Of a stretch of DNA of 64,000 nucleotides, positions 2,948 to 24,967 are shown in pieces (positions within the stretch are counted from its first letter, which is position 1; each line of letters opens with the position of its first letter). The notes beneath the pieces were generated by a model. The model did not search any database, was not told the origin of the DNA, and saw nothing but the letters and a program-made list of their open reading frames with translations. The stretch is from Candidatus Shapirobacteria bacterium (lineage in GTDB: Bacteria > Patescibacteriota > Microgenomatia > UBA12405). The position numbers were made by a program, and so were the translations under genes. Location of the stretch: assembly GCA_041659325.1 (NCBI GenBank), contig JBAZYN010000001.1:366819-430818 (forward strand), in the 5' to 3' direction.

Positions 2948-4264
2948 ATGGAGAATAATACAGATGACTTAGTAGCCAAAATTGTTTCCCTTTGTAAACG
3001 CCGGGGAATTATTTATCAAAACTCAGAAATTTATGGCGGCATTCAGGGATTTTATGACTTTGGACCCATCGGTTCCCAAATGAAACTTAATTGGAAAAAC
3101 CTTTGGTGGAGAGACAACGTCACCAGAAGGCGGGATGTTGTCGGAATCGACGGTAGTATTATTACTCACCCAAAAGTTTGGGAAGCCTCCGGACACGTAA
3201 AGAATTTTGGTGATATTTTGGTCGAATGCAAATCCTGTCACAAACGTTTCCGTCCTGATCTAATCGGTAATGTTGCTAAGTGCCCCGAATGCAGCGGCCA
3301 ATTCACCGAAGGTCGAAAATATAACATACTGTTTGAAACAGATATCGGTGTAATCGAAGGTGAAAAAATGCATGCTTATCTTCGGGGAGAGGCCTGCCAA
3401 ACAATTTATCTGGATTTCAAAAATATCGTTGACTCCTGCCGGGTTAAAATCCCCTTTGGCATCGCCCAAATTGGTAAAGCCTTCAGAAACGAAATTACCC
3501 CAAAAAATTTCCTTTATCGAACCCGGGAGTTCGAACAATGGGATATTCAGTATTTTGTCCACCCCTCCGAGATGGATAAATGGTACGAATATTGGAAAGA
3601 AAGCCGGATGAACTGGTATCGATCACTATTCAACAATTCCAAAAGTCTTCGATTCCGTGCCCACGAAAAAGATGAACTGGCATTTTATGCCCAAAAAGCA
3701 TTTGATATCGAATACCAAGCCCCGTGGGGTTGGGCCGAAATGGAAGGTCTTCACTGGCGCGGAGATTATGATCTGACGCAACACAGTAAATTCAGCGGAC
3801 AAGACTTAAGCTATGTCGATCCTGTCACCCATGAAAAATATTTACCCCACATCACTGAGTGTTCCGGGGGTGTTGACCGAAGTTTCTTTTTCATGCTTCT
3901 TGACAGCTACAATGAACAAACATTGGAAAGCGGAGAAACCCGAATCTTTTTGAAAATTAATCCCAAAATTTCCGCCTACAAAATCGCCATAATTCCCTTG
4001 GCTTCAAATAAGCCCGACCTTGTTAGTCTGGCAGAGACTATTTACTCCGAACTTAGCTCTAGATACTCCGTGGATTGGGACGACAGCAGTAATATCGGTA
4101 AAAAATACCGTCGCCAGGACGAGATCGGTACCCCCTGGTGTCTTGTGGTTGACTTCCAGACTCTTGAAGACGGTACGGTTACTATCCGGGACCGTGATAC
4201 CATGGAACAAATCAGAATCAACAAAGACCACGTCGATTCCTGGTTGCAGGAAAAACTTATCTAA
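2948..4264 (+). CDS. glyQS: Glycine--tRNA ligase (class II, dimeric GlyQS type)
   Basis: GFYDFGPIG, anticodon-binding C-terminus and class II motifs. 438 aa. Confidence 0.9.
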   Translation: MENNTDDLVAKIVSLCKRRGIIYQNSEIYGGIQGFYDFGPIGSQMKLNWKNLWWRDNVTRRRDVVGIDGSIITHPKVWEASGHVKNFGDILVECKSCHKRFRPDLIGNVAKCPECSGQFTEGRKYNILFETDIGVIEGEKMHAYLRGEACQTIYLDFKNIVDSCRVKIPFGIAQIGKAFRNEITPKNFLYRTREFEQWDIQYFVHPSEMDKWYEYWKESRMNWYRSLFNNSKSLRFRAHEKDELAFYAQKAFDIEYQAPWGWAEMEGLHWRGDYDLTQHSKFSGQDLSYVDPVTHEKYLPHITECSGGVDRSFFFMLLDSYNEQTLESGETRIFLKINPKISAYKIAIIPLASNKPDLVSLAETIYSELSSRYSVDWDDSSNIGKKYRRQDEIGTPWCLVVDFQTLEDGTVTIRDRDTMEQIRINKDHVDSWLQEKLI

Positions 4265-6063: not shown

Positions 6064-7671
6064 ATGTATCAAAAGAGAGCTAAGACAGTTTTTCTGACAA
6101 TATTGTTAGCATTTTCCGCCATTATATTGAGATTATTTTATTGGCAAATCATAAAGGGTGATGAGTTCAGAAAAAAAGCAATACTTCAAACTTATAAACT
6201 TGAAAAAATCCTTCCGGCAAAAGGCACCATAAATTCAGCAGACGGCTACCCCATGGCTCTAAGTCAGGACATCTACCAAGTATCGATTTATAAACCAAAT
6301 CTTAAGACAAATATCGACAACGTTATCTACCAGATAAATCAATCTATTCCCAACCTTATAGACTCCACCCATCCAACGGTAAAATCATTCATTACAAACC
6401 AAAATATAAAATGGGTAGACCTGCCGACCAAAATCTCCAAAGACAAAGTTGAAAAAATTAATCTACCAGGAATTAGTTTCAAGAAATATCAATCAAGGTT
6501 TTACCCGGAAAATCACCTGGCAAAAAATATTCTTTCCGGCCTGGAAAATTATTATATTAAACAACTTGCCGGAAAAACCGGCTTTTCCTTAACCGCCAAA
6601 GATGCCGTCGGCAACATCCTTCTGACCAAAAAAAGCTGGAATAAACTGGCAGTAGATGGACAAAATTTGCATCTTTACCTAAACCGCGGTATTCAGTTAC
6701 AAACCGAGCAGCTGTTGTCAAAAGGGATAAGACAATTCTCGGCCGACTCAGGATCAATTATTATTATCGATCCGCAAACGGGGGGAATACTTGCCATGTC
6801 TTCCCAAGGGGCCACAGACTCGGCAATACTAAATACACCACAAAACACTACTATTTCTAATCTGTTCGAGCCCGGTTCTATCTTCAAGCCACTGGTTGTT
6901 TCCATGGCTCTGGACATAAGTGCAATTCAGCCCGACTATATCTGCACTAAATGCAACCAGACTATAACCTTCGGTGAATATACCATTGGAAACTGGGACA
7001 ATCAAATCCATCCCGACTCAACCCTAAACGATATTATCAAAAACTCCGACAATATCGGCATGAGCCATATTATTGCCCGGCTCAGACTCGATAATTTTTT
7101 GAAATACTACTCGGAGCTTGGTTTAACTCAAAAAACCGGAATAGACCTCCAGGGAGAAACAAAACCTGTCGCAAAAAAATACTGGAGTGATGTTGATCTG
7201 GCCACCGCCTCCTTTGGGCAGGGGATAGCCGTGACTCAAATTCAGATGGTTCAGGCTTTCAACACCATTGCCAACAACGGCATTTTGGTACCTCCGAAAC
7301 TCGTTAAATCAATTACTGAAAACAACAAAACCATCAAAACAGGTCAACAAAAAATCAAAAGAGTTTTTCAGGAATCAACCATAAAAGAAGTAAAATCCAT
7401 CCTTAAATTTGCAGTAGAAAACGGCGCTATTTCCGGATTGAAACCAAAACAAATGGAAGTATGTGCCAAAAGTGGTACTGCTCAAGTGGCTGTTAAAGGC
7501 GGGTATTCAGAAAGCTCAGGTATCGCCTCATACATCGGTTTCTCCCCCTGCCAAAATCCAAAGTTTACCATGATTGTCACCATCAACAACCCAAAAACAT
7601 CTTCCTGGGGATCGAGTACTGCTGCTCCGATATGGTTCGATTTGGCCAGTCGTATCTACAATTTGCTATAA
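6064..7671 (+). CDS. ftsI: Class B penicillin-binding protein (FtsI, transpeptidase)
   Basis: N-terminal TM plus SXXK (GSIFKP), SXN (NSDNIG) and KTG (AKSGTA) motifs. Confidence 0.85.
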   Translation: MYQKRAKTVFLTILLAFSAIILRLFYWQIIKGDEFRKKAILQTYKLEKILPAKGTINSADGYPMALSQDIYQVSIYKPNLKTNIDNVIYQINQSIPNLIDSTHPTVKSFITNQNIKWVDLPTKISKDKVEKINLPGISFKKYQSRFYPENHLAKNILSGLENYYIKQLAGKTGFSLTAKDAVGNILLTKKSWNKLAVDGQNLHLYLNRGIQLQTEQLLSKGIRQFSADSGSIIIIDPQTGGILAMSSQGATDSAILNTPQNTTISNLFEPGSIFKPLVVSMALDISAIQPDYICTKCNQTITFGEYTIGNWDNQIHPDSTLNDIIKNSDNIGMSHIIARLRLDNFLKYYSELGLTQKTGIDLQGETKPVAKKYWSDVDLATASFGQGIAVTQIQMVQAFNTIANNGILVPPKLVKSITENNKTIKTGQQKIKRVFQESTIKEVKSILKFAVENGAISGLKPKQMEVCAKSGTAQVAVKGGYSESSGIASYIGFSPCQNPKFTMIVTINNPKTSSWGSSTAAPIWFDLASRIYNLL

Positions 7672-8990
7672 TTAACCCAATCTCAATGTTTTTTCTCCAA
7701 AAAATAAAAAACCTGTTTTGGCACCTACCGAAAAGTATATTTTTTAACCTATATTACGGTCTCCCTTCGAGAAAACTAATATTAATCGGTGTTACCGGTA
7801 CGGACGGGAAAACTACTACTTGTACTTTGATTCATGAAATTCTGAAAAACAACGGCCTCCAATCCGGCCTGATAAGCACCATCCATGCCAAAATTGGCGA
7901 CAAAATTATCGAAACCGGACTTCATACCACCAGTCCGGACCCAAAATTAATCCAACAACTATTTCGCCGGATGGTCAAGGCCGGTCTTACCCACTGTGTA
8001 TGCGAAGTCACCTCCCATGCCCTGGATCAAAACAGGTTTTGGGGATGTCAGTTTGAAATATCCGCCATTACCAATACTTCCCATGAACACCTCGATTACC
8101 ACAAAACAATGGAAAATTATCTTCGCTCAAAAACGAAACTTTTCCGAATTTCTAATCACGCCATTCTAAATAAAGACGATCCTTCATACAACATTATTTC
8201 CCCCACCGTCACTGTCCCTCATAAAACTTATAGCATTAATAAAAAATCTGATTTTCAGGCGAAAGATATCACCATCAAAAAAACTTACATGGAGTTTATG
8301 GTCAATGGAGTCAAAATTAAAACCGACAGTAACTACCACTACCAAATATACAATATCCTTGCCTCATTGGCCGTTACTAAACACCTCGGAATAAACATCC
8401 ATACCGCCAAATCAACCATCGTAAAATTTCCCGAAACCAAAGGCCGCCGAGAAGAGGTTCCCAATGAATTTGGTATCAAAACTATCATCGATTTTGCTCA
8501 TACTCCCTATGCCCTGGAAAGTACTTTAAGCGCTCTTAAAAATATAACTCCAAACAATCTGATTGTAATTTTTGGGGCAACCGGTGGACGAGACAAAAGT
8601 AAAAGGCCACTTATGGGCAAAACGGTTTCCCATGTCGCCAATATTGCCCTTCTTACTTCCGACGACACCAGAAACGAAAAAGTTGAAGATATCAACGAAC
8701 AAATTATAAGTGGAATTGACAAGAATTTATCCGAATTATGGGACTACAAAGAAGTTCAGTCTCAAAATTTATATTCCAAAGTGACCCAAGCCGCAAGAAA
8801 AAAATTTACTTTTATGAATATCCCCAATCGCCAGGACGCTTTTAACATCGCCGCCAAACTGGCTCACCCGGGTGACACAATAGTCGCCTGCGGAAAGGGT
8901 CACGAAACAACTATTTTACACGGCTCAACCGAATATCCATGGTCAGAATCAGAAGCCTTCAGAAGTGCTCTTAGATTTCGAAATATCTAA
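7632..8990 (+). CDS. murE: UDP-MurNAc-tripeptide synthetase MurE-like Mur ligase
   Basis: P-loop GVTGTDGKTTT and C-terminal TSDDTRNE, which corresponds to the MurE 'TSDNPR.E' region. The N-terminal domain is unusually short. Sits in the dcw position after ftsI. Confidence 0.75.
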   Translation: MVRFGQSYLQFAIINPISMFFLQKIKNLFWHLPKSIFFNLYYGLPSRKLILIGVTGTDGKTTTCTLIHEILKNNGLQSGLISTIHAKIGDKIIETGLHTTSPDPKLIQQLFRRMVKAGLTHCVCEVTSHALDQNRFWGCQFEISAITNTSHEHLDYHKTMENYLRSKTKLFRISNHAILNKDDPSYNIISPTVTVPHKTYSINKKSDFQAKDITIKKTYMEFMVNGVKIKTDSNYHYQIYNILASLAVTKHLGINIHTAKSTIVKFPETKGRREEVPNEFGIKTIIDFAHTPYALESTLSALKNITPNNLIVIFGATGGRDKSKRPLMGKTVSHVANIALLTSDDTRNEKVEDINEQIISGIDKNLSELWDYKEVQSQNLYSKVTQAARKKFTFMNIPNRQDAFNIAAKLAHPGDTIVACGKGHETTILHGSTEYPWSESEAFRSALRFRNI

Positions 8991-8991
8991 T

Positions 8992-9582
8992 ATGACTCAA
9001 TACAACCTTCAAATTAATTCCCCCGTTGACGAAAACTACGAACATGGGTTTTTACCCCAAAGAAACAACAAAAACCTCTTTTATCAGGAAACTAGCTCAC
9101 GCTCAAATCTTCACCACTTCTCCCTCAGTTCAGAAAACAGAAGAATTATTTCTAAAACCACACAATATAACTACGACTTTCTACCGCTAGCTGATTTTAC
9201 CTATAGTCTGTCCATAAAAAAAACAATCAATACCTGGATTCACAAACTTGGCTGGATTTTTCCGATGGGTTCGGTAAAAACAATATTTAATAATCATATC
9301 TTTAATTACCTTTATATCTGGAAAAATGAGCAACAACAAGTTATTGCTTATTCGATATGTTATTTTTCTGAAAAAATTTCTCATATTGCTTACGTTTTTT
9401 ACGACCCCACTTATTCGCACACCAATTTCCCGATCAGATTAACTCTGCAAACAGTTATCGACAGCCAAAAGAGGGGACTCGATTATTGTTATCTGGGCAG
9501 GTTCTCAAAAGATTCTGGATACTATAAAAGAACCATGCCCGGCTTCGAATATTTTAAAGATAATAAATGGATTACATTATAA
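8992..9582 (+). CDS. Arginyl/leucyl-tRNA--protein transferase C-terminal (ATE_C/Bpt-like) domain protein
   Basis: C-terminal YLGRFSKDSGYYKRTMPGFEYF..W matches the Bpt/ATE_C signature (YLGYW..S.KM.YK..F.P.E...W). The ATG lies 1 nt after the murE TAA. The Cys-rich ATE_N region is absent. Confidence 0.5.
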   Translation: MTQYNLQINSPVDENYEHGFLPQRNNKNLFYQETSSRSNLHHFSLSSENRRIISKTTQYNYDFLPLADFTYSLSIKKTINTWIHKLGWIFPMGSVKTIFNNHIFNYLYIWKNEQQQVIAYSICYFSEKISHIAYVFYDPTYSHTNFPIRLTLQTVIDSQKRGLDYCYLGRFSKDSGYYKRTMPGFEYFKDNKWITL

Positions 9583-9621
9583 ACTTTAAGACTTTTAGAC
9601 TTTTAGACTTCATAAATTAAT

Positions 9622-10995
9622 ATGCATATTCACGTTATAGGGATTGCCGGTACCATGACTTGTCCCCTGGCCATCGCCTTAAAAAAAGCCGGTCACACTA
9701 TCACCGGATCAGACCAGGAAAAAATATACCCACCGATAAGTACAAATTTAAAAAATGCCGACATCCCCATAAACACCCTCAAGAACTTTAAAATTGTTGA
9801 TTTGGCAATTATCGGCTCTTCCTATTTATCGTTTTCTAACACAAAAAGCGAGTTTGATATCATAAAAAAACTTAATATCCCCTACATTTCCGCCACCAAA
9901 TATGTCGGCCAAAATATTGTCAAAAAAAATTCGATATTGGTCGTCGGCACCGGCGGCAAAACCACAATCACAAGTCTAATAACCTGGATCTTTCTGAAGG
10001 CAAAACTAAATCCCAACTATATGTTTGGAGGCCAAAGCCTAAACAAAATTCCCTCCCTCGATTTCACCACCGGGGACTGGTCGATTGTTGAAGGCGATGA
10101 ATCGATAAACGGACTAGATACTAAAGCAAAATTCCTTTACTACCCGGCAAAATATGTCATTCTAACCGGTGCTAATTGGGAACACAAAGAAAGCTACAAA
10201 AACGAATCTGACAATCTGGAGTCTTTTCGGACACTTATCAAAAAAATCCCTCCGGACGGGTTATTGATTACCAATTCGCTAGGACACAAAACCGAAACGC
10301 TCTCCCTAGCCTCACGAGCCAAGGTAATTTTTTATAATGGGCAAAAGTCAGATTACAAAATAATCAAAAAGGAAATATCTCAAATTTCAAAATTAACTTT
10401 TGTTACTCCTAAAGGCAATTTATCGATAAAAACCAGTCTTCTCGGTACATTTAATTTTGAAAACATCCTTGCCGCCGTCACTTTGTGCATGGAAATTGGA
10501 ATTAATCCCAAAATTATCCAAAAGGCGGTATCTTCCTTTAGGGGAATCAGCCGAAGATTGCAGAAAATTATTTCAAAAAACAACCTTCACTTTTACGATG
10601 ACTTTGCTCAATCTCCCGAAAGAATCAAGTCGGCACTCGACGCTGTCAAGCTTCATTTTCCAAATCAAAGAATTTTTGTTTATCTTGAACCTCACGCATC
10701 ATTTCTTCTCACCACATCCGGGCTTATCGGCCTTGGAAACGCCCTGTCGGATTGTACAAAAATAATTCTGTCAAAAATTCCATTCAAAACCAATATCCCA
10801 ATCTCTACTCGGGCTACGGCAAAACACTATTCCGACGAGATTGGTGATAACCTTATATATATTCCTCAAAACAAAGAGCTTTATAAATATTTCCATCAAA
10901 CGTTAAAACCAAACGATATTCTGGTTCACTTTAGCTCTGGAGGAGCAGAAGGTCTCAAAACCTTCAAAAAAATTACTAGTTATCGCACACAATAA
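9622..10995 (+). CDS. murC: UDP-N-acetylmuramate--L-alanine ligase (MurC/Mpl-type Mur ligase)
   Basis: N-terminal IGIAGTMTCPLAIALKKAGHTITGSD, P-loop VGTGGKTTIT, EGDESINGLD and GISRRLQ all match MurC motifs. Confidence 0.7.
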   Translation: MHIHVIGIAGTMTCPLAIALKKAGHTITGSDQEKIYPPISTNLKNADIPINTLKNFKIVDLAIIGSSYLSFSNTKSEFDIIKKLNIPYISATKYVGQNIVKKNSILVVGTGGKTTITSLITWIFLKAKLNPNYMFGGQSLNKIPSLDFTTGDWSIVEGDESINGLDTKAKFLYYPAKYVILTGANWEHKESYKNESDNLESFRTLIKKIPPDGLLITNSLGHKTETLSLASRAKVIFYNGQKSDYKIIKKEISQISKLTFVTPKGNLSIKTSLLGTFNFENILAAVTLCMEIGINPKIIQKAVSSFRGISRRLQKIISKNNLHFYDDFAQSPERIKSALDAVKLHFPNQRIFVYLEPHASFLLTTSGLIGLGNALSDCTKIILSKIPFKTNIPISTRATAKHYSDEIGDNLIYIPQNKELYKYFHQTLKPNDILVHFSSGGAEGLKTFKKITSYRTQ

Positions 10996-12324: not shown

Positions 12325-13358
12325 TGACACATTTGTATTTGGGTTTGATGCTATTTTCGTTTCTTTCAACCAGTATTTTGGTGATTCCCTTTATTAACCT
12401 TTTATACAAGTTAAAATTTCAACGTCAAAAGCAAAAAACCCTTGATTTTCAAAATAAAAGAACTCCCATTTTTGACAAGTTTCATTCCCAAAAATCCGGA
12501 ACTCCGGTGGGAGGTGGACTTTTGATTATTCTCTCCGTCTGCATCCTTTTTATTTTTCTTTTCCCAATATTAAAGGTAGCCAAAATTTTTATCTCTAGCA
12601 ATTACCAAATTAATCGTGAACTGGAAATAATTTTCTTTACCTTTATCAGTTTTGGGCTTTTAGGTCTCTACGATGATGTGATGAAATTCTTTGGTTTCAA
12701 AAAAACAGGCTTTTTCGGGCTAAGAATGAAACACAAACTACTTTTGCAAATGTTTCTCTCTACCGTTATTTCGTTCATGATGTATTTTGGCCTAAACATC
12801 AACTTCATCTATATTCCTTTTTTCGGCGCCGTCAACTTGGGTCTCTTTTTTATTCCGATATCATCAGCCCTAATTATCGGTTTTGCTAATTTCTTTAATA
12901 TCACCGATGGTCTTGACGGCTTATCCTGTGGTCTTTTAATGATTGCTCTTTTTGCTTTTTGGGTACTAGCCGGAAACTCTCTGGACACTCCGATTTCTCT
13001 TTTTTTGGCTCTTTGGCTAGGAAGCTTGATTGCATTTTTGTATTTCAATATTTTTCCGGCCAGGCTATGGCTAGGCGACGTTGGAGCCTTATCGTTTGGG
13101 GCCACCTTCGCCGTGATAGCTCTGCTATTAGGCCGCGTGGTTCCTCTCCTAATCGTTGGCGCACCATTTATTGTAGAAGGGGGAAGTAGTGCTATCCAAA
13201 TAATTTCTAAAGTTTATTTCCACCGAAAACTTTTTCCGGCCGCCCCACTCCACCTCACTTTGCAAACCATGGGCTGGGAAGAACCAAAAATAGTCACCAG
13301 GGCTTGGCTAGCCGGTATTATATTAGCTATCTTTGGATTATGGTTGGGGCTAAACTAA
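12324..13358 (+). CDS. mraY: Phospho-N-acetylmuramoyl-pentapeptide transferase
   Basis: LGLYDDVMKFFG and NITDGLDGL motifs with ten TM helices. Confidence 0.9.
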   Translation: MTHLYLGLMLFSFLSTSILVIPFINLLYKLKFQRQKQKTLDFQNKRTPIFDKFHSQKSGTPVGGGLLIILSVCILFIFLFPILKVAKIFISSNYQINRELEIIFFTFISFGLLGLYDDVMKFFGFKKTGFFGLRMKHKLLLQMFLSTVISFMMYFGLNINFIYIPFFGAVNLGLFFIPISSALIIGFANFFNITDGLDGLSCGLLMIALFAFWVLAGNSLDTPISLFLALWLGSLIAFLYFNIFPARLWLGDVGALSFGATFAVIALLLGRVVPLLIVGAPFIVEGGSSAIQIISKVYFHRKLFPAAPLHLTLQTMGWEEPKIVTRAWLAGIILAIFGLWLGLN

Positions 13359-13933
13359 TTTCCTTGCTAGAAAAGGAAGTGAACAATTACCTAAGAATAC
13401 CTTACTTATATGGCGGCAAAAACACCTGGGAAGAAATCAAAAAGAATTTTTCAGAATACAAACAGCTCAAGAAAAACAAACAAGGAATAGACTGCTCTGG
13501 ACTGGCCTATCATCTCCTCGACTATTATTCAAAACTTTTGGGACTAGGCAGCATTTACGGTCATCTGATAGGCACCGAGGGTAAAAGAGGGGCTAGTCGA
13601 GTATCGGCCAATTTATTTACATCTCCCCCAAACTCATTTCCTTTATACACTTATTCCGACATCCGAACCGGAGATTTGATTAGGCTAGATTCCGGCCGAC
13701 ATATCTTGTTCGTCCTGGAATACAAAAAATCGCAAATTCGCTATGTTCACAGCAGCCACAAAACCAAAACTAGGGGGGTCCATTTGGGGGAAATTCAAAT
13801 TGTTGACCCCTCAAAAACCTTGGATCATCAAAAATGGAATGAAACCTACTCCAATGGAAAAAATTACTCCTCAATTTTCAACCAAAAAAATGGTGACGGA
13901 ATCTTTCGCCTATTTCTCTTCAAACAACTCTGA
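13340..13933 (+). CDS. NlpC/P60 family cysteine peptidase (peptidoglycan endopeptidase-like)
   Basis: YLYGGKN...GIDCSGLAY catalytic Cys motif with a downstream His. Internal Met start of ORF 13304..13933, overlapping the mraY end. Confidence 0.6.
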   Translation: MVGAKLISLLEKEVNNYLRIPYLYGGKNTWEEIKKNFSEYKQLKKNKQGIDCSGLAYHLLDYYSKLLGLGSIYGHLIGTEGKRGASRVSANLFTSPPNSFPLYTYSDIRTGDLIRLDSGRHILFVLEYKKSQIRYVHSSHKTKTRGVHLGEIQIVDPSKTLDHQKWNETYSNGKNYSSIFNQKNGDGIFRLFLFKQL

Positions 13934-14068
13934 TATCTTTAAAGGCTTCAAACCAACTATTTCAACCTCTGTCCCACACTCCTGACATTCGAGAATTTCA
14001 CCAACCTGCAAGACACCCTTTGTTTCTATTTCCGACTTACAATCTGGACAAAATATTTTATCTTCCAT
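13910..14068 (-). CDS. LysW-like zinc-ribbon amino-group carrier protein homolog (52 aa)
   Basis: Hand translation gives MEDKIFCPDCKSEIETKGVLQVGEILECQECGTEVEIVGLKPLKISELFEEK. The CPxC..EIE....GEI..C..CG.EVEIVGL.PL pattern closely matches LysW/ArgW. The C-terminus is EEK rather than the usual EDWGE. Too short for the ORF track. Confidence 0.5.
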   Translation of the reverse strand: MEDKIFCPDCKSEIETKGVLQVGEILECQECGTEVEIVGLKPLKISELFEEK

Positions 14069-14104
14069 AACAAAATTATATAATCAATAAACCTCAGTTA
14101 TTAT

Positions 14105-14926
14105 ATGACATCAACACCCCTAATAAAACTAGAAAACTTCTACCTGAAAAGAGAAGATAAAAATCAAACCGGTTCGATAAAGGACAGGGCAATATCACTG
14201 CAAATAGAAAATCTCGTTGGCAAAGGTATCTCGGCGGCGGTTATCTCCAGTACCGGCAACGCCGCCATTTCCGCTCTCTATTATTGCTCCAAATCAAACA
14301 TAAAACTGACCATCTTTCTTTCCCCAAAGATCAACCTGTCAAAACTATCACTCATCACTGAAAAAACAAAAAACTTTATCATTTCCGACAGACCAATTAG
14401 TGGTGCCTTTAAATATGCCAAAAAAACCAATAGCTTTTTGCTCCGACAATCCACCGATCCCATAGCTCAAATCGGCTATCAGTCGGTCGGCTTGGAGTTA
14501 TCAAAAGATATACCCGATATTACCAGCATATTTATGCCGGTTGGCAGCGGGACAACCTTGTTGGGCATTTCAAAGGGGCTCCCAAAAACTGTCAAAATTT
14601 TTGCCATTCAGCCCGCCTCTCACTGCCCCATCAGCCAAACATTTGACCCTCAATATATCAAAGAATCACACACCATCACCGATGCCCTATCCGTAAAACT
14701 TCTGCCCCTAAAGTCAGATATTTTAAAAACCATTACCGAGTCCGGTGGAGGAGGCATGGTTGTCCAAAACACAACGGTTGTTGAAACTCAAAAATTTCTC
14801 CTCACAAATAACATTTTTACTTCACCGGAAGGCGCCTTGGCCTTGGCCGGGTTCCTAAAGGCTGAAAAACTGGGAATCAAAGTTGGTGCCTACCCCGTAA
14901 TTATTTTAACGGGTGAACAAAGATGA
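14105..14926 (+). CDS. Fold-type II PLP-dependent enzyme, threonine-synthase/cysteine-synthase-like (short form)
   Basis: TPLIKLENFYLKREDKNQTGSIKDRA (PLP lysine), SSTGNAAISA, GSGTT and ESGGGG...SPEGALALAG match the ThrC/CysK family. 273 aa. Confidence 0.65.
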   Translation: MTSTPLIKLENFYLKREDKNQTGSIKDRAISLQIENLVGKGISAAVISSTGNAAISALYYCSKSNIKLTIFLSPKINLSKLSLITEKTKNFIISDRPISGAFKYAKKTNSFLLRQSTDPIAQIGYQSVGLELSKDIPDITSIFMPVGSGTTLLGISKGLPKTVKIFAIQPASHCPISQTFDPQYIKESHTITDALSVKLLPLKSDILKTITESGGGGMVVQNTTVVETQKFLLTNNIFTSPEGALALAGFLKAEKLGIKVGAYPVIILTGEQR

Positions 14927-16038
14927 CATCAAATTTGCTATCCGCTCTAAACCAATCTCCATACTACTATTTCTTCCTGGTTGTCGACGACTCGCTTAGA
15001 ATCTCCCTCCCGCAGCTAAAATATTTCACCCCGGTAAACTCCAATCAGTTCGACAATGAACTTAACTCAGGTAAGCTTCTTTCAAATCCAAAAGTAAGGG
15101 ACTTTATAGAAACTACCTCAAAAAAACACCATAAATTACCGGCAATTATCCCATTTAAACCATCCGCCAAAATCGATTTTATCTGTAAAAATAGAAATTG
15201 GCTTAAAGTCAGTAATGACAGTAGCTTAAACCGTGTAATTGAGGACAAATTAAAATTTCCGCTAATCTGTAAAAATCACGATATTCCGATTTTGCCGTTT
15301 ATTATCGACAAGCTAAATAGATTATCTTTTGAAAAGGCCAAAAACCTACTCGGCCCCGAACTTATAATCCAAACTCACTTTGGTTGGGCCGGTAAATCCA
15401 CTTTTCAGGCAGATTGCTTTGACCATCTCAAAAAAACAATTCCACCCGACACTGTTGTAAAATTTTCACCCCACCTCAAAGAGAGTTACACCCTTCTAAA
15501 TAACTGCTGCCAAACTAATAAGGGGCTAATCCAAAGTCCACCGGCAGTTCAATTTACTGGGATTAGGTCGCTGACTACCAATCCTTTCTCCACCGTCGGA
15601 CGTCAATGGCCATCCTTTGCCCCCCCCGATATTATCGACCAGACTTTCAAAATTACCCAAAAATTTTCCGACTATCTTGAAAAGAAACACTATAAAGGTT
15701 TCTTTGGTCTCGACTTTATTGTTGATCAAAACAAAGTATACCTTCTCGAATGCAATCCCAGACTAACCGCCTCATTTGCCTTTTATACCCAAATTGAGCT
15801 GAAAGCCAATTTAAATCCGCTTTTCCTTTTTCACCTTGCCGAATTTAGTCTTAAAAACTATCTCTTTGACATCACCACCGAACAGACACGTTTCAAAAAC
15901 CCAAAAATCATCGGCACTCAACTTACCAGAAGAAGCGAGTCAGGCAAAATAGACGGAAAATACGAAACCAATAATTTTATCGTTACCTCTCCCAAAAATT
16001 CAACTATAAAAAATGAGATCATCTCCAAAATCAACTAA
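14923..16038 (+). CDS. ATP-grasp family ligase (CPSase/L-amino-acid-ligase-like C-terminal motif); not a canonical Ddl
   Basis: LIIQTHFGWAGKSTF (ATP-binding) and GFFGLDFIVDQNKVYLLECNPRLTAS (ATP-grasp C-terminal). No Ddl-type N-terminal GEDG motif. Confidence 0.6.
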   Translation: MTSNLLSALNQSPYYYFFLVVDDSLRISLPQLKYFTPVNSNQFDNELNSGKLLSNPKVRDFIETTSKKHHKLPAIIPFKPSAKIDFICKNRNWLKVSNDSSLNRVIEDKLKFPLICKNHDIPILPFIIDKLNRLSFEKAKNLLGPELIIQTHFGWAGKSTFQADCFDHLKKTIPPDTVVKFSPHLKESYTLLNNCCQTNKGLIQSPPAVQFTGIRSLTTNPFSTVGRQWPSFAPPDIIDQTFKITQKFSDYLEKKHYKGFFGLDFIVDQNKVYLLECNPRLTASFAFYTQIELKANLNPLFLFHLAEFSLKNYLFDITTEQTRFKNPKIIGTQLTRRSESGKIDGKYETNNFIVTSPKNSTIKNEIISKIN

Positions 16039-24307: not shown

Positions 24308-24967
24308 ATGAAAATTCATTTGAAGATACTGTTTTCCCTGTTTTTATTTCTGGCTTTTTTAATCATCTTAGAGCCATATCTTCCGAAATTTCTTTCAAAA
24401 CAAAACCTAATCAATCCGGGCACTATCAAAGACGACTATGATAAAAATGCAAAAATTGCCATATTTAACAATCAAATTCTCTCCCCACCCCACGACTCCC
24501 CACCAACAAAGCTAGCAAACATTTTGGGTGATACAAACGAGTACAAAAGAATCGAAGTCGATTTAACCGCTCAAAGGGTTTATGCCTACGAAGGTAACCG
24601 CCAGGTCTATAATTTCCTGATCTCATCAGGCTCGTGGGACAGAACTCCAACCGGTACCTTTCGGATATGGACAAAAATTAGATCACAAAAAATGTCCGGC
24701 GGCTCAAAGGCGCTAGGAACTTATTATTATCTTCCGAATGTCCCATATATCATGTTTTTTTATAACGAAAAAACATCAAAGGCTATGGGCTACAGTTTTC
24801 ACGGAACTTACTGGCACAACAATTTTGGCGTACCCATGTCCCACGGTTGTATCAACATGAAAACACCCGAGGCCGCTCAATTATTCTCCTGGGCAGAAGT
24901 AGGGACACCAGTTACTATATCCGGAAAATATCAAACAGTCCTCCCCAAAGCACACGAAAAAAGCTAG
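24308..24967 (+). CDS. L,D-transpeptidase (YkuD domain) with N-terminal TM
   Basis: [21 protein letters not shown] catalytic His/Cys motif. Confidence 0.8.

Follow-up and report, generated by a model that had tools for sequence, protein, structure and literature searches.

A divergent Bpt/ATE-type aminoacyl-tRNA transferase homolog between murE and a MurC/Mpl-type ligase gene suggests an undescribed tRNA-dependent step of stem-peptide synthesis in Patescibacteria

Why would a relative of the aminoacyl-tRNA-protein transferases lie in the middle of a peptidoglycan-precursor operon? The question is raised by a stretch of 64,000 nucleotides (nt) from a Candidatus Shapirobacteria genome (contig JBAZYN010000001.1, positions 366,819 to 430,818; hereafter the window), where a small open reading frame (ORF), which we call X, separates murE from the gene of a MurC/Mpl-family ligase in a division and cell wall (dcw) cluster. 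To our knowledge, Bpt/ATE enzymes act only as taggers of protein N-termini for degradation, and tRNA-dependent wall chemistry is so far restricted to the Fem/MurM enzymes of Gram-positive bacteria. An earlier note, made from the letters of the window alone, proposed that X is a Bpt-like enzyme that modifies the stem peptide or a division protein rather than performing N-end-rule tagging. We propose here, with moderate confidence and from sequence-based evidence, that X would transfer a small uncharged residue from aminoacyl-tRNA to the side-chain amine at position 3 of a soluble wall precursor, a role similar to that of the Fem enzymes.

The ORF listed for X spans 8965-9582 and opens with a GTG that falls within murE. 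The statement that the gene begins 1 nt after the murE stop does not hold for this GTG but fits the ATG at 8992, the likely start, which lies 1 nt past the murE stop codon (TAA, 8988-8990); read from there to the stop codon at 9580-9582, the protein is 196 amino acids (aa) long. Its C-terminal sequence (YCYLGRFSKDSGYYKRTMPGFEYFKDNKW) contains the YLG, YK, E and W of the Bpt/ATE signature, as the earlier note had seen, although not letter for letter, as MPGFE stands where F.P.E is expected. An identical protein from a Candidatus Shapirobacteria metagenome-assembled genome (MAG) is present in the databases, named hypothetical at NCBI and arginyl-tRNA-protein transferase at JGI.

Membership of X in the Bpt/ATE family was best seen when its relatives were considered together. 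The Pfam ATE_C model matched 45 of 50 diverse members of the X family (best E-value 3e-10), whereas neither ATE_N nor FemAB (PF02388, E <= 0.01) matched any of these 50; the Leu_Phe_trans model (Aat, PF03588) likewise failed to match X or the 50 members in Pfam scans. When the X-family profile was aligned by hhalign with genuine Bpt proteins, whose genes were taken from proteobacterial replicons, the probability was 99.0% (E 4.9e-18) and the alignment paired X residues 10-196 with residues 45-240 of A. baumannii Bpt. The AlphaFold model of X is a single domain of 196 aa (predicted local distance difference test score, pLDDT, 91.9). In a fold search with this model, ATE1 ranked first (human, yeast and K. 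lactis; E 1.4e-8, template modelling (TM) score 0.68), followed by the aminoacyl-phosphatidylglycerol synthase domains of MprF, W. viridescens FemX (a weaker match, TM 0.52-0.56) and the tRNA-dependent peptide synthase Sba18, with plain acetyltransferases below all of these. At the sequence level, a profile of close X homologs gave no meaningful match to PDB sequences, and a broader profile gave weak ATE1 and GNAT matches only. Because of the ATE_C matches, the hhalign probability and the top rank of ATE1, we accept descent from Bpt/ATE: judged from these comparisons, X is a true but very divergent homolog, a placement for which the family-level evidence is decisive and which agrees with the GNAT enzyme of the Bpt/ATE superfamily that the earlier note had recognized.

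The same data bear on whether X uses tRNA at all. X could be a GNAT of another kind, either an N-acyltransferase that transfers from acyl-coenzyme A (CoA) to the precursor or a non-catalytic partner that replaces domain 1 of MurE, the UDP-binding domain, which the MurE of this locus lacks. Acetyltransf_6 matches 17 of the 50 family members and a few match Acetyltransf_1, distant members carry an R/K-N-L-G-x-G loop that resembles the CoA pyrophosphate loop, and one tRNA-contacting histidine has no equivalent in X (see below). Against these features stand the top sequence and fold matches, which are all aminoacyl-tRNA transferases with ordinary acetyltransferases ranking lower, the invariance of the Tyr-Lys pair of the tRNA-dependent enzymes, and the X homologs that occur without an adjacent MurE. 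We thus regard a tRNA-independent activity as improbable.

Which parts of the Bpt/ATE1 machinery does X retain? Residues were mapped by chaining an alignment of X to Bpt with one of Bpt to klAte1, for which mutational data are available (Kim et al. 2022, PMC9351520). Y178-K179 of X, invariant across the entire X family in two alignments, corresponds to Y223-K224 of Bpt and Y303-K304 of klAte1. The klAte1 variants Y303F and K304A are inactive, and K304 is equivalent to K305 of FemX (PMC9351520). The basic helix is also kept, with SSENRR in X and SxxQKR in Bpt. Other parts are lost. X is shorter than Bpt and ATE1 (~240-270 aa) and lacks the first ~40 residues of ATE_N together with its first Cys; Cys67, Cys70 and Cys73 of the Bpt CxxCxxC motif are K27, F30 and E33 in X, which leaves none of the four Cys that bind a metal or an Fe-S cluster. 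The C-terminal half of ATE_N persists, however, in a Cys-less form, so that the earlier description of a missing Cys-rich ATE_N part is right for the ligands and the N-terminal residues but not for the remainder. The first Arg of the GFRRSG motif, R80 in klAte1, is essential for recognition of the acidic N-terminal residue (PMC9351520), and its identity was confirmed from the klAte1 chain numbering and from that paper; X reads G19-F20-L21 followed by a gap of five residues, with Leu21 in place of R80, and both Arg of the motif are gone. Finally, the aminoacyl side-chain pocket is lined by I132, L150, T154 and C166; the corresponding residues are S, S, E/D and Y in ATE1 and A, A/S, Q and L/V in Bpt. 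Because this pocket is uncharged, Arg is unlikely to be the donor amino acid. With the four Cys and the GFRRSG Arg lost and the pocket changed, the alignments indicate that X is probably not a Bpt/ATE1 in the functional sense, although it retains the catalytic machinery.

The genomic context of X was strikingly constant. A scan of one genome per species returned 87 relatives of X, nearly all from MAGs of Shapirobacteria or other Patescibacteria, and murE, X and the ligase gene followed each other on one strand in every one of the 84 Shapirobacteria/Patescibacteria loci (~80 species). Since all 84 loci repeat it, the arrangement is far beyond chance. The tight coupling to murE noticed in the window is general: the median distance from murE to X is -4 nt, an overlap, and 80 of 82 loci stay within 9 nt; from X to the ligase the median is 4 nt. 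No terminator was found on the + strand between murE and the ligase, in a promoter/terminator scan that did not rise above background, nor was a tRNA gene found near X. In one lineage, X and the ligase form a single protein joined by a Pro/Ser-rich linker (P0122, 645 aa, L085 8001-9938; also L086 and L087); three assemblies, perhaps all from a single sample, encode it, each time at the same chromosomal position. Identity to the window protein across species is 58% for X, 57% for MurE, 49% for the ligase, 52% for FtsI and 51% for MurG; X is thus conserved to the same degree as MurE, and its constraint is typical of essential wall enzymes. Thus, among genomes that carry X, the gene was found in place in relatives with a syntenic cluster, just as matches to ATE_C and to the GNAT fold were found, and the conserved order on which the earlier note had staked its proposal is real. 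Two minor observations concern these loci: in the window, X and the ligase are separated by 39 nt (9583-9621) that hold three tandem copies of AGACTT(TT), probably a trivial feature, and many species records with the cluster (L006-L083) are titled 'uncultured Gammaproteobacteria bacterium', one Methanoperedens, evidently from mislabelled or contaminated bins.

Remote homologs of X, of 26-31% identity, also adjoin MurE-like or MurC-like ligases or MraY. In L088, the homolog overlaps a MurE-like gene by 4 nt and a MurC-like gene lies downstream; in L090, it stands between mraY and a MurC-like ligase gene; in L092, it is divergent from such a ligase gene; and in L094, the cluster comprises MurE, a PgeF-like gene, a LysW-like ribbon, X, a MurC-like ligase, a pyridoxal phosphate (PLP)-dependent PALP enzyme, an ATP-grasp enzyme and mraY. 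Two more contexts were uninformative or not adjacent to wall genes. In a second subfamily, from the candidate phyla radiation (CPR), the cluster matches that of the window except that murF, joined in one case by ddl, separates murA from mraY. The most numerous relatives in soil and peat metagenomes come from the Verrucomicrobiae: more than 2,600 proteins, 22% identical to X and with all hallmark motifs, encoded as the third gene of a triad after a PurD-like ATP-grasp enzyme and an alanine racemase (L184 4396-7804; L120-L183; X-like protein of 264-267 aa). As this triad lies away from dcw clusters, the common denominator of the X family is an ATP-grasp ligase with a PLP racemase-type enzyme, to which the Patescibacteria add MurE and the MurC/Mpl ligase. 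No specific relationship was detected between the ATP-grasp partners of the CPR and the Verrucomicrobiae. The earlier claim that X sits inside a peptidoglycan-precursor operon therefore applies to the Patescibacteria and not to the Verrucomicrobiae. Taken together, the contexts point to peptide chemistry with D-amino acids and the wall, not to protein degradation.

Two other features were seen near remote homologs. In L096 (8001-10430), a protein of 809 aa (P0182) combines an X-like domain with PPDK_N, which is of the ATP-grasp type, and with a PEP-utilizer mobile domain; 4.4 kb upstream of its gene, a MurE-like gene is found. Cu-oxidase_4 genes of the PgeF/YfiH type lie beside X homologs and Mur ligases in L092 (2498-3094) and L094 (2574-3443). 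A role of this family in the editing of incorrectly built wall precursors has been reported for E. coli.

Two explanations that keep X a protein-modifying enzyme can be judged against these contexts. X could be a conventional Bpt, to which it is homologous and as its JGI label would have it. We hold this for highly improbable: NCBIfam arginyltransferase equivalog models gave X 20-25 bits against cut-offs of 170-267, about one tenth of what they require, X has lost the Cys4 site as well as the Arg of GFRRSG, the gene order is fixed in ~80 species, one lineage fuses X to a Mur-type ligase, and the remote homologs, too, lie beside Mur ligases. Its place in a peptidoglycan operon also differs from a location beside aat or clpS; in the A. 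baumannii bpt record (L098), the gene just upstream is annotated as a leucyl/phenylalanyl-tRNA--protein transferase. The earlier argument against N-end-rule tagging is supported by the Arg-to-Leu change, the ligase fusion of one lineage and the remote homologs. Alternatively, X could modify the N-terminus or a lysine of some other protein, for example a Mur enzyme, a divisome protein or a LysW-like carrier, as the substrates of every Bpt/ATE enzyme characterised so far are proteins or peptides (PMC9351520) and a LysW-like carrier recurs with X along with an ATP-grasp ligase. However, the pocket for acidic N-termini is lost, the fusion and constant adjacency to the ligase suggest a shared metabolite, and the verrucomicrobial triad includes no carrier protein. 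A protein target would thus come as a surprise to us.

How could X contribute to wall synthesis? In the canonical pathway, a free amine is available only from the product of MurE onward. Because an aminoacyl-tRNA transferase needs an amine, and the first free one is that of the MurE product, this product would be the acceptor. We propose that X descended from Bpt/ATE transferases and was recruited into peptidoglycan precursor synthesis. It has kept the GNAT core, in which the Tyr-Lys pair would stabilise the tetrahedral intermediate and the basic helix would hold the acceptor end of the tRNA, but neither the regulatory module that binds the metal nor the pocket that accepts acidic N-termini of proteins. 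MurE, X and the MurC/Mpl-type ligase would be produced from one transcript. MurE would yield a stem-peptide intermediate with a free amino group for X to aminoacylate, the simplest candidate acceptor being the amine on the side chain of the position-3 diamino acid, and the result would be a branch or a cross-bridge, like those made with FemX or MurM in Gram-positive bacteria. A direct replacement of MurD or MurF by X was also considered and rejected, as those steps activate the carboxyl of the growing chain and a transferase needs an amine acceptor.

Several points weigh against position-3 branching by X. The use of a tRNA donor, the amino acid it would carry, the acceptor and the point in the pathway (a soluble UDP-linked precursor) are all inferred; the sequence reveals neither donor nor acceptor, and the function is a predicted one. 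Taken alone, the window protein scores 23.8 bits against ATE_C (E 7.3e-5), below the gathering score of 25. The tRNA-phosphate-binding His of ATE1 and FemX, H178 in klAte1, falls in a gap of X. The verrucomicrobial homologs lie outside dcw clusters. The loci of our scan were chosen for carrying X, and the counts cover such genomes. Finally, the constant neighbour and fusion partner of X is the MurC/Mpl-like ligase, not MurE or MurF, and a position-3 branching enzyme would not obviously need a partner of this kind.

The identity of this ligase opens another route, in which the stem peptide would be assembled off the sugar nucleotide in a tRNA-dependent manner. MurE would form a Glu-diamino-acid peptide from free D-Glu or from a Glu-peptide, X would then supply the alpha-amine with residue 1 (L-Ala, Gly or Ser) from aminoacyl-tRNA and thus retain the ancestral aminoacylation of an N-terminal Glu, and the Mpl-like ligase would load the product onto UDP-MurNAc, so that MurD and a classical MurC would be dispensable; in a possible salvage variant, X would re-extend scavenged gamma-D-Glu-diaminopimelic acid peptides. 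Such a route would explain why the ligase, rather than MurE, is the constant and fusion partner of X, and the gene order murE-X-ligase would be the order of the reactions. The ligase indeed leans towards Mpl. In five lineages, it scored 136-198 bits against E. coli Mpl and 76-110 bits against MurC (blastp), its best PDB match is the P. arcticus Mpl (3hn7), and it has an insertion found only in Mpl (NGLDTKAKF, where Mpl has (S/T)AFFDKRSK) along with the motifs GSD..YPPxST, DDFA and SSGG. The set of Mpl features used for this comparison comprises GI(C/G)GTFM, the insertion and residues of the C-terminal domain. Moreover, because alignments of the MurE start only at residue 95 of the E. coli enzyme, or at domain 2 of all solved MurE structures, the protein lacks the UDP-binding domain; the orthologs at related loci are all ~437-443 aa long, and the DDTR found in place of DNPR retains the Arg that contacts the distal carboxylate. 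The earlier naming of the two neighbours as murE and murC was thus correct at the level of the MurE type and the MurC/Mpl family, but the 'murC' is by these comparisons nearer to Mpl and the MurE is a shortened one. A murD-like gene was found neither in the 64-kb window nor in the 1.46 Mb that surround X homologs nor in the clusters of the second subfamily, even though MurF-like and Ddl-like genes, also not found in the window or in the 1.46 Mb, are present in the last. An NlpC/P60-like peptidase in the window and PgeF-like genes elsewhere fit a theme of peptide handling.

This MurD-independent route rests, however, on murD being absent from the whole genome, and murD and a canonical murC may sit elsewhere. 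The leaning of the ligase is itself mixed: the TIGR murC model gives it 219 bits and the mpl model 165, both under cut-off, some true MurC proteins score almost as high against it as Mpl, and the ligases beside the distant homologs of L090 and L094 show the same Mpl-leaning mixed picture. The Arg that recognises acidic N-termini is lost in X, a MurE acting on a UDP-free substrate is without precedent, and a D-configured acceptor would be new for the Bpt/ATE family. We therefore find assembly off the sugar nucleotide rather unlikely and keep position-3 branching as the preferred reading, at the strength given above.

Comparison with known systems clarifies what X shares with them. With Bpt/ATE1, it has in common the homology over residues 10-196, the fold and the signature motifs. 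With FemX, FemABX and MurM, it shares the proposed job, aminoacyl-tRNA-dependent modification of a wall-precursor amine, the GNAT fold, a catalytic Lys after an aromatic residue and the link to wall genes; the substrate of W. viridescens FemX is the soluble UDP-MurNAc-pentapeptide. Those enzymes combine two GNAT domains, in some cases with a coiled coil, and occur in Gram-positive bacteria, whereas X is a single small domain from another branch of the superfamily, in Patescibacteria. Overall, X has the association with wall-precursor genes but neither the FemAB profile and two-domain architecture nor ATE_N, the GF/WRRSG motif or Leu_Phe_trans. Mpl and its recycling pathway are suggested by the specific features of the ligase, its best scores and a cytoplasmic-looking NlpC/P60 peptidase nearby, but as the murC model outscores that of mpl the assignment is ambiguous; we know of no Mpl that partners a tRNA-dependent enzyme or replaces murC in a dcw cluster. 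A last parallel is offered by Enterococcus faecium, where Aslfm, an ATP-grasp D-Asp ligase, and the racemase Racfm serve cross-bridge synthesis (cited in PMC2922099). The proposed logic would be the same, a D-amino acid being made and ligated to a wall precursor, and across phyla an ATP-grasp ligase and a PLP enzyme of the racemase type accompany the X homologs; the X-linked ATP-grasp enzymes, however, show no detectable relationship to Aslfm or among themselves, and the types of racemase differ.

In the window, the cluster runs rsmH, ftsL, ftsI, murE, X, ligase, murA, mraY, NlpC/P60-like ORF, LysW-like ribbon, PLP enzyme, ATP-grasp, ftsW, murG, ftsA, ftsZ and RodA-like gene. The module at the usual place of murD (13304-16038) recurs in the unrelated lineages L090, L094 and L108, and a fold search with its ATP-grasp enzyme returned generic biotin-carboxylase and PurK matches only. 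The features discussed are collected in the table.

Table. Genes of the window discussed in the text, with coordinates in the window.
Feature	Coordinates	Strand	Remarks
X, N-terminally shortened Bpt/ATE-family aminoacyl-tRNA transferase homolog	8992..9582	+	196 aa; Cys-less; Y178-K179; SSENRR at residues 47-51
MurE-type ligase without domain 1 (UDP-binding)	7632..8990	+	true start probably ATG 7686; DNPR reads DDTR; stop 1 nt before X
MurC/Mpl-family ligase with Mpl-like features	9622..10995	+	always the partner downstream of X; one protein with X in P0122
NlpC/P60-like cysteine peptidase	13304..13933	+	DCSG motif; start probably inside the listed ORF; after mraY in many related clusters
LysW-like zinc-ribbon protein	13910..14068	-	52 aa; recurring module; linked to X by co-occurrence only
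PLP-dependent (PALP) enzyme	14105..14926	+	resembles threonine synthase/serine racemase, no finer assignment; recurring module; putative role
ATP-grasp ligase, biotin-carboxylase/PurK-like class	14923..16038	+	recurring module; in the usual murD slot; putative role

Three genes outside this group were also recorded. A glycyl-tRNA synthetase gene (2948-4264) lies upstream of the cluster, in the order recO, glyS, an ORF of ~234 aa and rsmH; its placement, shared with L001, L003, L085 and the second subfamily (L107-L115), may reflect housekeeping synteny or give a hint of the donor tRNA. Between recO and glyS, an ORF of 453 aa (1571-2932), missing from that place in L001, L003 and L085, had no Pfam or NCBIfam match. 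A YkuD-type L,D-transpeptidase (24308-24967, 90 bits) is encoded 3 kb past the cluster and might be relevant to the cross-linking of a modified or tripeptide-type stem.

Full-text searches of the literature found no account of a Bpt/ATE-like gene within a dcw cluster or of its fusion to a Mur ligase, and a survey of Mur chimeras lists no Bpt/ATE-ligase chimera. The arrangement of murE, a Bpt-like gene and a Mur-type ligase suggests an undescribed tRNA-dependent step in the making of the stem peptide. On the preferred reading, a GNAT lineage other than that of the Fem enzymes would carry out tRNA-dependent wall chemistry; the chance that X stands for an entirely new category is smaller. If the preferred reading is true, aminoacyl-tRNA would have been recruited to wall synthesis a second time and independently, the Bpt/ATE family would have its first non-protein role, and a first concrete handle would be gained on the wall chemistry of the Patescibacteria, almost all of which are uncultured. 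All three enzymes concerned, the MurE that lacks domain 1, X and the Mpl-like ligase, are small, soluble proteins that can be expressed and assayed on standard precursors. Should MurD be truly absent, these bacteria would possess a natural alternative to the textbook Mur pathway, a tRNA-dependent route to the stem peptide itself.

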